DNA from: an uncultured Chromatiaceae bacterium
GTDB taxonomy: Bacteria; Pseudomonadota; Gammaproteobacteria; Tenderiales; Tenderiaceae
Reading direction: 5' to 3'
DNA length: 64,000 bases
NCBI GenBank assembly: GCA_947085765.1
Contig: CAMTXZ010000031.1
Coordinates: 30,283-94,282, forward strand
Positions 715 through 7,403 of the stretch are shown here, piece after piece; position 1 is the stretch's first letter; each line of letters opens with the position of its first letter. The position numbers and the translations under genes were made by a program. The notes below the pieces were generated by a model. That model had not been told where the DNA came from. It saw only the letters and a program-made list of their open reading frames with translations, and searched no databases.

Positions 715-2685
715 ATGAAAAGCCTCTGGGACGATAACGAAGCCAAACAGTACAGCGACGAGCTCGGCCTGCGTGTCTACAGCTCACGGCTATTAGGGCG
801 TGATGCCACCCTGGTACTGCATGGTGGTGGTAATACCTCCGTCAAAATCACGCAAAAAAATATCGTCGGCGAAGAGCAGCAACTGCTGTGTGTCAAAGGC
901 AGCGGCTGGGATCTGGAGACCATCGACCGCCCCGGCTTTCCCGCCGTCAAACTCGACCACCTGATCAAACTGGCAAAACTCGAATCACTCAGCGATCCGC
1001 AGATGGTCAACGAACTGCGCACCCACATGACCGATGCTGGCGCGCCGACACCCTCAGTCGAAGCGATCCTGCACGCCACCCTGCCCTACAAGTTTGTCGA
1101 TCACACCCACGCCGATGCGCTGGTCACCATCACCAACACACCGGGCGGACTCGAAAAAATCAAACAGATCTACGGCGACACAATTGTTATCGTGCCTTAC
1201 ATCATGCCCGGCTTCGACCTCGCCCGCCTCTGCGCCATCGAGTTCGAGAAGCAGCACAACGCCAATACCATCGGCATGGTGCTGATGAACCACGGCATCT
1301 TCTCGTTTGCCGACGATGCCAAGAGCTCTTACGAACGTATGATCCAACTGGTCGGCATGGCCGAGGAGTACATCAAGTCACAGAGCGCCTGGGAGTTGGA
1401 TTACGACACAGCTGCCAACAACAGTGCCGATGCTCTTGCACTCGCCGCACTGCGCCGCGACATTTCAAAGGCCGCTGGTTTCCCGGTAGTACTGCGCAGC
1501 CAACGTGATGCCAAGGCGATGAGCTTCTGCAACCGTTCAGACGTTGCCAAGGTTGCCCAGCAAGGCCCCGCTACCCCTGATCATGTGATTCGCACTAAAC
1601 GACTGCCACAGATTGGCCGTGATGTTGCGGGTTATGTCGAGACATACAAAAACTATTTCAATCAACACGCCTCCGATGCACGTGAACCGAAGACGATGGT
1701 CGATCCCGCACCGCGTGTCATACTCGACAAAACACTGGGCATGATCAGCATTGGCAAGAGCGCCAAAGAGGCGCAGATTGTCACCGACATCTACGACCAC
1801 ACCATGGATATCATCGCCCGCGCCGAGTTGATGGGCGGCTGGCAGGCGCTCTCGGCAAAACATATCTTCGACATGGAGTACTGGGATCTGGAACAGGCCA
1901 AACTGCGCAAGGGCGGCAGCGCACCGCAGTTCCAGGGCGAGATCGCACTCATCACCGGTGCCGCCTCTGGCATCGGTAAGGCGTGTGTCGAGTCGATGCT
2001 CAAACGCGGCGCTGCCGTGATCGCCATCGACATCGATGCCAAGATCGAAACGCTCTTCAAACGCGCCGACTATCTCGGCATCACCTGTGATGTGGCCGAC
2101 GAAACAACACTGATCGCCGCGATCAAACAGGGCGTCGCCCACTTCGGCGGGCTCGACATGGTCGTGCTCAACGCCGGCATCTTCCCCGGCGGCAAACGCA
2201 TCGACAATCTCAGCAGTGACGAGTGGCGCAAGGTGATGCAAATCAACCTCGACCCCAACCTGGTGTTGATGCGCGAGACCTATCCATTCCTGAAACTGGC
2301 ACCGAAAGGTGGCCGCGTCGTCGCCATGGGTTCCAAAAACGTCCCCGCCCCCGGCCCCGGCGCAGCCGCCTACTCCGCCACCAAAGCCGCGCTGACCCAG
2401 ATGACCCGCATCGCCGCGCTCGAATGGGGAGCAGAGAACATCCGCATCAACACACTGCATCCCGATTGTGTATTTGATACCGGCATCTGGACCGACGAAG
2501 TACTCGCTGCACGCGCCAAACACTACGGTCTGACAGTGGAGCAGTACAAACGCAAGAATATATTGAAGACCGAAGTCACCAGCCATGATGTAGCCGAACT
2601 TACCTGCGAACTCTGCGGACCGCTATTCGCAAAAACCACAGCTGCGCAGATCCCCATCGACGGTGGCAATGAGAGGGTGATTTAA
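715..2685 (+). CDS. Bifunctional class II aldolase (rhamnulose-1-phosphate aldolase-like) / short-chain dehydrogenase
   Basis: N-terminal class II aldolase/adducin-like domain (HGGGNTSVK, HTHAD) fused to an SDR domain (TGAASGIGKA, YSATKAA). The ORF track begins at 346 but overlaps the upstream gene; ATG at 715 (MKSLWDD) or 673 is the likely start. Confidence 0.8.
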   Translation: MKSLWDDNEAKQYSDELGLRVYSSRLLGRDATLVLHGGGNTSVKITQKNIVGEEQQLLCVKGSGWDLETIDRPGFPAVKLDHLIKLAKLESLSDPQMVNELRTHMTDAGAPTPSVEAILHATLPYKFVDHTHADALVTITNTPGGLEKIKQIYGDTIVIVPYIMPGFDLARLCAIEFEKQHNANTIGMVLMNHGIFSFADDAKSSYERMIQLVGMAEEYIKSQSAWELDYDTAANNSADALALAALRRDISKAAGFPVVLRSQRDAKAMSFCNRSDVAKVAQQGPATPDHVIRTKRLPQIGRDVAGYVETYKNYFNQHASDAREPKTMVDPAPRVILDKTLGMISIGKSAKEAQIVTDIYDHTMDIIARAELMGGWQALSAKHIFDMEYWDLEQAKLRKGGSAPQFQGEIALITGAASGIGKACVESMLKRGAAVIAIDIDAKIETLFKRADYLGITCDVADETTLIAAIKQGVAHFGGLDMVVLNAGIFPGGKRIDNLSSDEWRKVMQINLDPNLVLMRETYPFLKLAPKGGRVVAMGSKNVPAPGPGAAAYSATKAALTQMTRIAALEWGAENIRINTLHPDCVFDTGIWTDEVLAARAKHYGLTVEQYKRKNILKTEVTSHDVAELTCELCGPLFAKTTAAQIPIDGGNERVI

Positions 2686-2783
2686 GCGACCACACCATCG
2701 AATCAATGGGCGGGCTCATTCTCACATTCGTAGGGTGCGTATAATCGTGGCAGGGGAACCAATCCTTTAAGGGACTTGTATTG

Positions 2784-4193
2784 ATGCTGAAGCACCTATT
2801 TCTTAGACCAGAAATGCTTGGTCGCCTGATATTTTCTAAACCAGACGGACAGTCCTATTACGTTCAAGCAACTTCTGAGCAGAAAACCAGACGCGCGCTC
2901 CCCGAGGAGATCGTTCGACAATTGTTCGTGCTGTCTCTACTTCATGATTATAAATACCCGGAGGGGTTAATCCGCTTGGAATTACCTATCCAGATGGGTA
3001 GAGAAAAAAAGCGTGCTGATATTGCTGTATTGGAGGCTAATGGCAATGTCAAAATTATCATAGAGGTCAAGGTAGAGCATGACAAAGACTCTATGCCGCA
3101 GCTTATGTCATACATGGCAATTACGGGGGCTTTGTATGGAGCAATCGTTTCCAGTGCTGAAATTATTTGCGTCAAACGGCTATCAACCCAGGATATAGTA
3201 CCGATAAGTGACTTACCTATTTTCTTGGGAAATGACACCTTGTCTGAGCCTGAAATACAGGCGAAGCACAATCCACAACCAAGTTTTCCAGGCACCCCGT
3301 GCGCCTCCATTGAAGTAGAAGGCTTTGAGCGAAATACTCCAACCCACGCCAAGATCACAATCAAAGGGCACACACTTCAACTCTCTAACGTAGAGCTAGA
3401 GTCATACAAAAAACTTAGGCAGAAGTTTCTGATAGCAGGTGTAGCCCTTAACCCGAACGTCAAACAGGCGGAGTGGTTTGATATGTTTAGTCAGCTGCTA
3501 GAGACCACGCCGATAAATGCCATGCCTATTTTAGTGGAAAGTGACACCTCGTCTGAGCCTGAAATACAGACGGATTACAATCCACAACCAAGTCTGCCAG
3601 GCACTCCGTGCGCCTCCATTGAAGTAGAAGGCTTTGAGCGAAATACCCCAACCCACGCCAAGATCACAATCAAAGGTCACACACTTCAACTCTCCAACGT
3701 AGAGCTAGAGTCATACAAAAAACTTAGACAGAAGTTTTTGATAGCGGGCGCGGCCCTTAACCCGAATGTCAAACAGGCAGAGTGGTTTGAGATATTTAGT
3801 CAGCTGCTAGAGCATACACCGATTACTTATCTGTCCAGTCCACAGCGGGGTAGTGCTGTTGATGAGAAGGCACTGGCAGCTATCGAGGAAGCATTGGGGC
3901 AAGGGCAGCCTGGATTCTCGGGTGGTTGGATCAGTTCATTTGCGCTGGATAGGTTGCTGGATAGACTCAAGATCAGTGTTCCGCGCACTAATCGCAAAAA
4001 ATTATTAAACGCGCTTGGCTATGAGTGGCACCCTAACCTCCCTGATGGGCGTTTGAACAACCCGATCAATGACCCTTCTGGCGATTTCGGCAGACCGAGA
4101 TTGTTTATTTCTAAGGAGCATATGACTGCAAGATGGGTTAATGGTAGTGATATCGCCAGGGCGTATCTTGCAGATCAAGTTTCGGGGAGTTGA
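2784..4193 (+). CDS. HsdR_N-like (PD-(D/E)xK nuclease-fold) domain protein with internally duplicated C-terminal domain
   Basis: N-terminal segment ADIAVLEANGNVKIIIEVK resembles the type I restriction HsdR N-terminal / PD-(D/E)xK motif (D...EVK). RBS-like aaggga sits 8 nt upstream of ATG 2784. The gene lies in an AT-rich island. Confidence 0.55.
   Translation: MLKHLFLRPEMLGRLIFSKPDGQSYYVQATSEQKTRRALPEEIVRQLFVLSLLHDYKYPEGLIRLELPIQMGREKKRADIAVLEANGNVKIIIEVKVEHDKDSMPQLMSYMAITGALYGAIVSSAEIICVKRLSTQDIVPISDLPIFLGNDTLSEPEIQAKHNPQPSFPGTPCASIEVEGFERNTPTHAKITIKGHTLQLSNVELESYKKLRQKFLIAGVALNPNVKQAEWFDMFSQLLETTPINAMPILVESDTSSEPEIQTDYNPQPSLPGTPCASIEVEGFERNTPTHAKITIKGHTLQLSNVELESYKKLRQKFLIAGAALNPNVKQAEWFEIFSQLLEHTPITYLSSPQRGSAVDEKALAAIEEALGQGQPGFSGGWISSFALDRLLDRLKISVPRTNRKKLLNALGYEWHPNLPDGRLNNPINDPSGDFGRPRLFISKEHMTARWVNGSDIARAYLADQVSGS
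3234..3851. repeat. Tandem direct repeat, 2 x 309 bp (about 93% identical), inside CDS 2784-4193
   Basis: Copy 1 begins gacaccttgtctgagcctgaaatacag at 3234; copy 2 begins gacacctcgtctgagcctgaaatacag at 3543. The protein shows two near-identical 103-aa units (…PGTPCASIEVEGFERNTPTHAKITIKGHTLQLSNVELESYKKLRQKFLIAG…). Confidence 0.9.
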
Positions 4194-4322
4194 GGTTGGT
4201 GCCAATAACGTCAATGAGACAAACCACGTTACCGGCTTGTCTCCGAGCAGCAAGTAGGCTGGACTTGGAGTTTTTCGAAAAAACTGGGGCATTTGATTGA
4301 ACAATATCTATGGGTGGTGTTT

Positions 4323-5003
4323 ATGACTGAATTGAAAGATCGAATTGAAGATGTTCTTTCCTTGGTGGAACAGAATTTTGAATTTTTCCATGTTGGGATG
4401 TTTTTTGATGATTACGCAAAGCGTAATGATCTCTCATCAAAGGTTGTACCAATCGAACTATCTCTTGAAGATGAAAAAGTGTTTAGGCCGGGTGATATAG
4501 TCAAAGATTCATTGCGTGACTATTTTATAAAAGACAGATCGACCGTCTTTGGTTACATGGTCGCATGGAATGCATTTCGTGGAATCGGCATGGCAATGAA
4601 GGAGGGACTGCAAGACAATCCAAACCTTAAGGATTTCATAAAGAAAAAGCTCGGGAACAGATATGAACATTATCACGCCATTTTGAGTTTTATTAGAAAT
4701 GTGTTGTCGCACAACATACACGACGAAACACAGCTGAAAGAACAAAACTACAAAGATACCCGCACATATTTTGTGAGGGATGTTTGTTCAACAGGAGTTG
4801 CAACACTTTCCATTAACTATGCCGATGATTTTCCAGGAACGAATCTTCCAAGTGGCTATGGATTCAATCTTGAAGTTAATTTCAATTTATTAAATCCTGG
4901 AAAACGTTTTATTGAGGTTATTTCTGAATCGCATTTATATATGTTTTCTGAACTTTGCTTCATTTTAGTTAAAGCATTTCGGAACGAAGCGCAGCCAAGC
5001 TGA
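4323..5003 (+). CDS. Hypothetical protein with HEPN-like Rx4H motif (candidate Abi/RNase-type effector)
   Basis: ORF 4293-5003 (TTG at 4293, ATG at 4323). Motifs NRYEHYH and FIRNVLSHN (R-x4-H) flanked by hydrophobic residues, at about nt 4691-4711. AT-rich codon usage unlike flanking core genes. Confidence 0.4.
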   Translation: MTELKDRIEDVLSLVEQNFEFFHVGMFFDDYAKRNDLSSKVVPIELSLEDEKVFRPGDIVKDSLRDYFIKDRSTVFGYMVAWNAFRGIGMAMKEGLQDNPNLKDFIKKKLGNRYEHYHAILSFIRNVLSHNIHDETQLKEQNYKDTRTYFVRDVCSTGVATLSINYADDFPGTNLPSGYGFNLEVNFNLLNPGKRFIEVISESHLYMFSELCFILVKAFRNEAQPS

Positions 5004-5107
5004 GGTGCATTCCATGCACCAATGACAACTGAAGCATAGACCATCGAATACAGAGATTGATGCCGGATATTTTTTGGATCGCAAAGGTAAAAATTGGAGC
5101 TGATCTT

Positions 5108-5341
5108 ATGAACATCAACCTGAACCTAGAGGCTTTGGAAGCGGAGGTTCTTAAACTCTCCTCTGCTGATCGTTCCCATCTTTTAGAGCGGCTCATTGGC
5201 AGCCTTGATGCAGATGCTGCAATCGATGCGGCATGGGAACAAGAGGCCGAGCGCCGTCAGATGGATATCGAATCCGGGAAGGTCACCCTGGTTTCTGGTG
5301 AAGAGGCGATGCCCCGTTTAAGAGAGAAGTTGAAACGGTGA
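5108..5341 (+). CDS. Type II toxin-antitoxin antitoxin, putative addiction module component (TIGR02574 family)
   Basis: MNINLNLEALEAEVLKLSSADRSHLLERLIGSLD… matches the conserved N-terminus of the TIGR02574 antitoxin family. Its stop overlaps the GTG start of the downstream toxin (GTGA). Confidence 0.7.
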   Translation: MNINLNLEALEAEVLKLSSADRSHLLERLIGSLDADAAIDAAWEQEAERRQMDIESGKVTLVSGEEAMPRLREKLKR

Positions 5342-5631
5342 CTTTTTCACTGCACCCGGAGGCAGAAAGAGACATTGCCGATGCAATTGATTTTTATCTT
5401 CGGAATGCAGGCTTGATTGTCGCCGAGAGGTTTTTGGATGAGTTTTACAGGGCGGCCCGCTTTCTCGTAGAGAATCCTGAGGCTGGTACACCATCGTTGC
5501 GTGATCGCCGCACGTTTCCTCTCCATATTTTTCCGTATTCAATTGTGTATGTACCATCACGTGGAGAGATCTGTATTCTAGTCGTCAGACATCAGCGCCG
5601 TCAGCCAAGTTACGGTGCAGAACGACAGTAA
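5338..5631 (+). CDS. Type II toxin RelE/ParE family (plasmid stabilization system protein)
   Basis: 97 aa. MTFSLHPEAERDIADAIDFY…VYVP…ILVVRHQRR is the RelE/ParE fold pattern. Translationally coupled to the upstream antitoxin. Confidence 0.75.
   Translation: MTFSLHPEAERDIADAIDFYLRNAGLIVAERFLDEFYRAARFLVENPEAGTPSLRDRRTFPLHIFPYSIVYVPSRGEICILVVRHQRRQPSYGAERQ

Positions 5632-5732: not shown

Positions 5733-7403
<1,671 letters not shown>

Follow-up and report, generated by a model that had tools for sequence, protein, structure and literature searches.

A long-retained in-frame module duplication in a rare, solitary protein with a predicted PD-(D/E)xK nuclease head and a tail shared with phage replicases

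The stretch of DNA considered here, referred to as the window, comprises 64,000 nucleotides of contig CAMTXZ010000031.1 (assembly GCA_947085765.1), from an uncultured Chromatiaceae bacterium that GTDB places in the Tenderiaceae. One of its genes, which encodes a 469-residue protein with a nuclease-type N-terminal domain, contains two head-to-tail copies of a 309-nucleotide unit joined in frame. On the basis of sequence comparison and structure modelling, we think that this is a genuine module duplication in a solitary, target-directed nuclease, an explanation to which, taken as a whole, we give a probability of about 0.55. Its structural and evolutionary part we regard as highly probable; the functional part, according to which the protein is a lone target-directed DNA endonuclease engaged in conflicts with phages or mobile elements, is offered as a tentative proposal that we would not call likely. 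In the model, four domains of the gene product follow one another like beads on a string: a nuclease-type head, two copies of a domain that we designate M (M1 and M2), and a tail domain known from phage replicases.

Register, origin and age of the duplication

In the first 10 kb of the window, Tandem Repeats Finder reported a single tandem array, at positions 3201–3812, with a period of 309, 2.0 copies, 90% matches, 0% indels and a score of 1021. A base-by-base comparison at an offset of 309 gave similarity from about 3201 to about 3516, and a separate repeat search of the window returned the same register as the array. The features concerned are as follows.

3201–3509, forward strand: repeat copy 1, 103 codons, made up of a disordered linker and M domain 1 (Tandem Repeats Finder, offset-309 comparison, repeat search)
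3510–3818, forward strand: repeat copy 2, 103 codons, made up of a disordered linker and M domain 2 (same evidence)
3201–3207, forward strand: CCGATAA, microhomology at the left junction (read from the sequence); the same heptamer stands at 3510–3516, and CCGATTA at 3819–3825
3696–3727, forward strand: run of 32 nucleotides identical to 3387–3418 of copy 1, inside which three read-set contigs begin, at 3698 (sequence comparison, read-set contigs)

The two copies are identical at 276 of 309 nucleotides (89.3%), the 33 differences all being substitutions, with no indels and the reading frame unbroken; a match of this length at about 90% identity cannot be attributed to chance. Identity rises to 91–92% over 3222–3504 and 3240–3500, where the first 20–40 nucleotides are dropped, and reaches 94% at the protein level in the M core. 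The longest runs of identical nucleotides are 41, 32 and 29. An earlier note on this DNA, made from the sequence alone, had described an in-frame tandem duplication of 309 nucleotides at 3234–3851 with about 93% identity. The duplication, its period of 103 codons and its frame are confirmed by Tandem Repeats Finder and the offset comparison, and the high identity stands as well; the placement was 33 nucleotides too far to the right of the true 3201–3818, and the percentage was slightly high for the whole unit. Identity drops to 86.4% with the units drawn at 3234–3542 and 3543–3851, since a range so placed begins 33 nucleotides late and extends beyond the repeat on its 3' side.

The sequence is GTA-CCGATAA-GTG at the first junction (3201), ACG-CCGATAA-ATG at the second (3510) and ACA-CCGATTA-CTT at the third (3819); in a single-copy ortholog, protein P0002, a corresponding "PI" dipeptide stands at either end of the module. 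In the mechanism that we propose, an ancestral single module would have been flanked by 7-nucleotide microhomology, on which the breakpoints would fall, and the duplication would have arisen between the microhomologies. From the junction sequences we infer either illegitimate or unequal recombination or replication slippage at the heptamer as the probable mechanism.

The differences between the copies are distributed unevenly. Over the first 29 codons of the unit (3201–3287) there are 12 non-synonymous and 0 synonymous codon changes, corresponding to 0.23 non-synonymous substitutions per non-synonymous site (dN) and 0.09 synonymous substitutions per synonymous site (dS). The domain core (3288–3509) has 4 non-synonymous and 11 synonymous codon changes (5.0 and 13.0 changes, respectively, by the Nei–Gojobori method), with a dN of 0.02–0.03 and a dS of 0.27–0.31. 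The resulting dN/dS of about 0.1 between the cores indicates that both M copies are under purifying selection. Relative to the closest ortholog (locus L002), core dS is about 0.9–1.0, approximately three times the value between the copies, and the duplication is therefore younger than the split from that ortholog. As judged from these substitution counts, the duplication is nevertheless rather old and not very recent, as the earlier note had called it, and the copies appear to have coexisted for a long time under purifying selection; by the same measure, the linkers diverged fast after the duplication while both M cores stayed conserved.

The two-copy gene is also found outside the window. An identical 469-residue protein with both copies is encoded on contig JANOSY010000046 of assembly GCA_031416075.1, a Candidatus Tenderia metagenome-assembled genome (MAG), where the flanking DNA differs from that of the window by 9–45 mismatches per 200 nucleotides. 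Logan short-read contigs from ERR3478689, ERR3478688 and SRR20217189 all start exactly at window position 3698 and run on from there with bases specific to copy 2; the read-set contigs cover both genotypes. Contig breaks at this position would be the branching of a k-mer (de Bruijn) graph that is expected when both copies are present in the reads.

Domain architecture of the protein and its relatives

The open reading frame spans 2781–4193, and its start is taken as the ATG at 2784 because homologs begin MLKHLFLRPE; the encoded protein is identical to P0001 of the public protein collection. An AlphaFold2 model built from an alignment of 29 family sequences has a mean predicted local distance difference test score (pLDDT) of 85 and a predicted template modelling score of 0.40, and comprises four confident globular domains (N, residues 1–145; M1, 178–243; M2, 281–346; C, 356–469). 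These are linked by segments with pLDDT below 50, the low-confidence stretches being residues 152–154, 156–173, 250–276 and 349–355. The corresponding features of the gene are listed below.

2784–4193, forward strand: host gene, 469 residues, a solitary modular PD-(D/E)xK (HSDR_N_2) protein (list of open reading frames, Pfam, family alignment, identical P0001)
2784–3218, forward strand: N-terminal PD-(D/E)xK nuclease-like domain, residues 1–145 (Pfam, AlphaFold2, Foldseek, invariant alignment columns)
3219–3314, forward strand: acidic linker 1, residues 146–177 (low pLDDT, charge)
3315–3512, forward strand: core of M domain 1, residues 178–243, predicted as three beta strands followed by three helices (AlphaFold2; domain hidden Markov model, E = 1.3e-36)
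3513–3623, forward strand: acidic linker 2, residues 244–280 (low pLDDT, charge)
3624–3821, forward strand: core of M domain 2, residues 281–346, with the fold predicted for M domain 1 (AlphaFold2; domain hidden Markov model, E = 1.8e-36)
3849–4190, forward strand: C-terminal alpha/beta domain, residues 356–469 (BLASTP, IMG/VR loci, Pfam content of relatives, AlphaFold2 pLDDT above 90)

The N-terminal domain is matched by the Pfam family HSDR_N_2 (PF13588) at 77 bits, where the cut-off is 25 (E = 1.5e-21), and the full model (1–110) is covered by residues 40–145; the HsdR_N-like character that the earlier note had given to the gene, and the peptide that it quoted from the unit, were thus correct. 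Residues D79, E94 and K96, the putative catalytic D...ExK, are invariant in the 29 aligned family members. Modelled with pLDDT above 90 for residues 11–140, the domain matches BsaXI (8w0p), an HsdR fragment (3h1t), Cas4 and 3ijm in Foldseek with probabilities of 0.99–1.00, and also DrdV (7lvv). It is accordingly predicted, on both sequence and model, to have a restriction-endonuclease-like fold with an intact D...ExK triad.

The same model resolves the 103-residue repeat unit, the fold of which the earlier note had proposed to predict, into an acidic disordered linker followed by one M domain of about 66 residues, in which three antiparallel strands precede three helices. Sequence searches of Pfam, PHROGs and the Protein Data Bank (PDB) returned no relative of M, and BFVD gave no significant structural match (best E, 0.055). 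In a full HMMER scan of 1.84 billion representative proteins, M turned up in just 25; in most of the full-length matches it begins at about residue 130–200, and in the aligned family members it follows the nuclease head. No homology was detected between M and proteins of the P0031 type described below, or between either M or the C-terminal domain and the Head or Tail of NrS-1 polymerase. A degenerate DNA pattern for FERNTPTHAKITIKG had no match in metagenome contigs. Pfam matches to YjhX_toxin and WH_GTF3C1_N, both sub-threshold, and a PHROG "primase" match (E = 0.009), likewise below threshold, were rejected.

The last approximately 115 residues of the protein match, by BLASTP, the extreme C-termini of four proteins of 770–950 residues (P0031, P0032, P0038 and P0059) at 43–62% identity, with E-values down to 1e-38, the best being residues 685–782 of P0031 (62%, E = 1e-38). 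All four proteins carry the Pfam domains NrS1-1_pol-like_HBD and DUF5906 (SF3 helicase). A relative of the C-terminal domain is encoded at 416 IMG/VR loci, and in all 80 of the 80 loci kept the match stops 0–29 residues before the stop codon; where they are not cut by the end of a contig, these viral reading frames are 761–958 residues long, and the five that were checked with Pfam have the same NrS1-1_pol-like_HBD and DUF5906 architecture. When the P0031 group is compared as a profile with NrS-1 polymerase, residues 5–561 of that enzyme align with a probability of 99.7%, the alignment ending before the tail, and the profile of the C-terminal domain has no match to the NrS-1 Tail (hhalign probability, 0.3%). 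As far as sequence comparison goes, the C-terminal domain is therefore best described as the tail found in one subgroup of the NrS-1-like replicases and as a positional equivalent of the NrS-1 Tail, homology between the two not being demonstrable. NrS-1 polymerase depends on its Tail to form hexamers and to bind DNA fully (PMC7102993), and in SaPI Rep and SCCmec Cch/Cch2 a C-terminal domain binds the origin iterons (PMC9371898, PMC7581432). The predicted order of secondary structure elements in the C-terminal domain (helix, strand, helix, helix, strand, strand, helices) could accommodate a core of the winged-helix type. Its first helix, DEKALAAIEEALGQGQ (window 3849–3900, residues ~356–372), resembles the N-terminal helix region of RecA and matched engineered multi-RecA chains in phmmer (E = 2.7e-6); a relationship to RecA was rejected, as the match consists of one short helix-like stretch and is gone when the family profile is used.

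The combination of N and M domains occurs in about 30 sequence clusters. The nearest relatives of the window protein, P0002–P0007, are at least 67% identical to it in every shared module, and all have one M domain. Two M domains are present in P0009 and a Nitrosomonadales MAG (L011), with copies 78% identical, in P0108 (45%) and P0104 (42%), and at locus L183, which has not been assigned to a lineage. In all, at least three lineages besides that of the window protein have two, having mostly acquired them by separate duplications. The comparison of unit number among related sequences that the earlier note had called for thus reveals variation between family members. The window protein, P0009 and P0108 each have two M copies that are one another's nearest relatives and have therefore arisen by independent duplications; in P0104 one M copy is nearer to that of the single-copy protein P0029 than to its partner. 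Taken together, these observations suggest that, in this nuclease family, the number of modules can itself evolve.

The region between the N and C domains is plastic across the family in other respects as well. A WDxRIH...DGxWRYK motif marks inserts in P0009, P0010 and P0016, the insert of P0014 is MarR-like, and P0008 contains an additional helicase-associated (HA) domain. The WDxRIH-type insert, which lies between the nuclease head and M, is about 45 residues long (residues ~175–225 in P0009; ~205–330 in P0010, where there are two copies; also in P0016) and follows the pattern (L/V)D..G(Y/L).WD.RIH(S/A)...(K/R)...DG.WR(Y/K)K(K/R)G, succeeded by a short helix (..IA..E.EL). With N and M conserved, the C-terminal domain is swapped for another in P0021–P0026, P0006, P0018, P0019, P0027, P0029, P0030, P0104, P0107 and P0113, and several of these alternative tails end in motifs that presumably resemble the C-termini of other phage or plasmid primase-helicases. 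The complete architecture was not found in viral contigs, and the combination of N, one or two M domains and a tail is unrepresented in Pfam, PADLOC, NCBIfam and PHROGs, with PADLOC and NCBIfam recognising the nuclease head alone. At three Elusimicrobia loci (L014, positions 6001–6725; L180; L181) the homolog appears split, M being encoded by a separate frame of 80 residues (6447–6686) that is shifted relative to the N-terminal part; these could be frameshifted pseudogenes or could reflect a sequencing error common to related assemblies.

Genomic setting

The gene lies in a low-GC (guanine plus cytosine) islet, which has a GC content of 37–50% compared with 55–62% in the flanks. The features of this region, in addition to the gene itself, are as follows.

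2152–5617: block identical, save for one mismatch (at 4763), to the Candidatus Tenderia MAG contig JANOSY010000046, and holding the low-GC islet (alignment, GC profile)
4323–5003: orphan gene of 226 residues, GC 37–40%
5108–5341: ParD-type antitoxin (Pfam Unstab_antitox, E = 1.7e-13)
5338–5631: ParE toxin (Pfam, E = 2.1e-13), overlapping the ParD-type gene; the pair lies within the islet, immediately downstream

The block of 3,466 nucleotides contains the 3' end of an aldolase/SDR gene, the nuclease gene, the orphan gene and parDE; an ABC-F gene completes the list of neighbours. A nearly identical block between flanks as diverged as those described above points to recent transfer or recombination of the islet, and suggests its recent horizontal exchange between the two lineages. 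It is also possible that the identity of the block stems from cross-assembly of co-occurring strains.

The orphan gene has no match in Pfam, PHROGs, PADLOC or NCBIfam, and only 17 related clusters, none of them named, among 5.8 billion proteins. It was rejected as a functional partner of the nuclease gene, being found only in the two Tenderia genotypes and beside no other family member. More generally, no conserved neighbour was found across the loci of the family. The homolog at L005 stands beside PemK and RES-Xre toxin-antitoxin pairs, that at L176 near an ISL3 transposase, and that at L183 beside RhuM/Fic and DUF2971 genes. At L002, in a betaproteobacterial MAG, the closest one-copy ortholog (P0002) closes an island of about 10 kb (L002, 1–11191), which opens with a tyrosine integrase and of which the other genes are unannotated, with one PHROG match only (to a DNA-polymerase family). 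The homologs at L011–L013 lie simply between housekeeping genes. These settings show a solitary, horizontally acquired gene in accessory DNA.

Known systems, possible function and alternatives

Several known systems share one part or another with the window protein. Type I HsdR and Type IIB/IIG/IIL enzymes belong to the same HSDR_N_2 family, with the same fold and the same D...ExK triad as the N-terminal domain, and the PADLOC "MTase_I" models (PADLOC-DB v2) match the protein at residues 21–145, these being its only defence-model matches; the neighbouring gene has no match in PADLOC-DB v2. Unlike Type I HsdR, the 469-residue protein lacks an SF2 translocase (it has no ResIII, DEAD or helicase match in Pfam), and no hsdM or hsdS is found near the gene; unlike Type IIG/IIL/IIB enzymes of the MmeI, DrdV or BsaXI type, it has neither a PF02384 methyltransferase nor a target-recognition domain. 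The PF02384 methyltransferase is present in more distant HSDR_N_2 matches (P0033–P0099). With NrS-1-like primase-polymerase/helicases the protein shares the tail domain, but not the Prim/Pol, HBD, head or DUF5906 helicase domains. The self-loading Rep helicases of staphylococcal islands (SaPIbov Rep, 8tch; SCCmec Cch, 5dgk) are also among the closest known systems. In-frame duplication of a domain is an ordinary phenomenon; the gene itself is a new version within the modular PD-(D/E)xK nucleases.

Under the explanation that we favour, the protein would act alone as a target-directed endonuclease against mobile elements or phages. Whether on DNA or on a replication protein of a phage, targeting or assembly would fall to the C-terminal domain and perhaps to M too, and the nuclease head would be tethered through the flexible acidic linkers. 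With the duplication, each chain would have twice as many M modules and a tether longer by about 100 residues, so that avidity, valency or reach would change without the repeat acting as a switch. A more specific form of this proposal, which we consider a long shot, is that the rare family constitutes an undescribed single-gene anti-phage system, in which a restriction-type nuclease with a captured phage primase-polymerase/helicase tail is delivered to the replisome or origin of the invader, the number of M modules tuning reach or avidity.

The extra module might instead be a neutral passenger that is tolerated and adds nothing, the low dN/dS reflecting selection against misfolding of an expressed domain. 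Such an interpretation would accord with the single M domain of most family members and with the fact that M has no assigned function, yet a neutral direct repeat of 309 nucleotides should be deleted well before a dS of about 0.3 is reached, and several lineages of this very small family have duplicated the module and kept it; on balance we think it unlikely.

A different role for the whole protein must be considered as well. Rather than a defence nuclease, it might be a selfish, free-standing endonuclease of the homing type, or an accessory for replication or maintenance of a small mobile element, with M and C binding the DNA of its own element. The patchy and solitary distribution of the family, often at the edge of integrase- or insertion sequence-bearing DNA or next to toxin-antitoxin pairs, would fit such a role, as would the derivation of the C-terminal domain from replication proteins and the resemblance of M to a domain of the self-loading Rep helicases. 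Against it, a repeat search found no iterons or other repeats near the gene, replication genes, an integrase and element ends are missing from most of the loci, and no intron or intein context was seen. We regard this role as improbable.

The earlier note had raised two further explanations. According to the first, specificity would be switched by recombination between the repeats. In the form weighed here, a population would contain interconverting alleles with one, two or three modules, in the manner of contingency loci. There is a precedent in HsdS of the EcoR124 family, in which short spacer repeats vary in copy number and reset specificity; as in that case, the repeat described here is in frame, lies between functional modules of a restriction-related gene and could alter spacing. 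In addition, the identical runs of 41, 32 and 29 nucleotides could allow rare RecA-dependent unequal exchange, and module number does differ between lineages. Unlike the HsdS repeats, however, the unit is a whole module of 103 residues, present just twice, old and stable, without observed polymorphism. The copies are not the near-identical units that frequent recombination would keep (identity is 89–90%, and the longest identical run is 41 nucleotides), and a core dS of about 0.3 implies long coexistence without homogenisation. Both genotypes have exactly two copies of identical sequence, the 90%-identity cluster of P0001 consists of that one sequence and so contains no one- or three-copy variant, and no invertase or recombinase adjoins the gene. 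No copy-number variant was seen among the two genotypes and four read-set contigs, a small sample examined at the level of contigs. We hold switching to be very unlikely. The second explanation, an assembly artefact, in which the assembler would have expanded one unit or stitched two strain variants in tandem, is excluded for practical purposes: although the source sequences are metagenome-assembled genomes and short-read graphs do branch within the repeat, the two-copy structure recurs in two genotypes with diverged flanks and, through copy-specific bases, in independent read sets, the 33 differences (mostly synonymous in the core and mostly non-synonymous at the linker end) bespeak long independent evolution in one exactly kept reading frame with a pattern of purifying selection, and comparable architectures with copies 78% and 45% identical exist in other family members.

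The repeat is a textbook case of modular protein growth, in which a cassette of linker plus domain was copied at a 7-nucleotide microhomology and kept by selection. It also carries a caution, in that diverged tandem repeats in metagenome-assembled genomes are not necessarily artefacts. The host gene is of more interest than the duplication, as it represents a very rare and uncharacterised combination of a nuclease head, the orphan domain M and a tail that is widespread in phage replication proteins. If it is true that this phage-derived tail targets the nuclease to the phage replication machinery, the family would exemplify a new logic of immunity or of competition between mobile elements, and its natural variants with one and two M domains would already supply the material for an experiment on tether length and valency.

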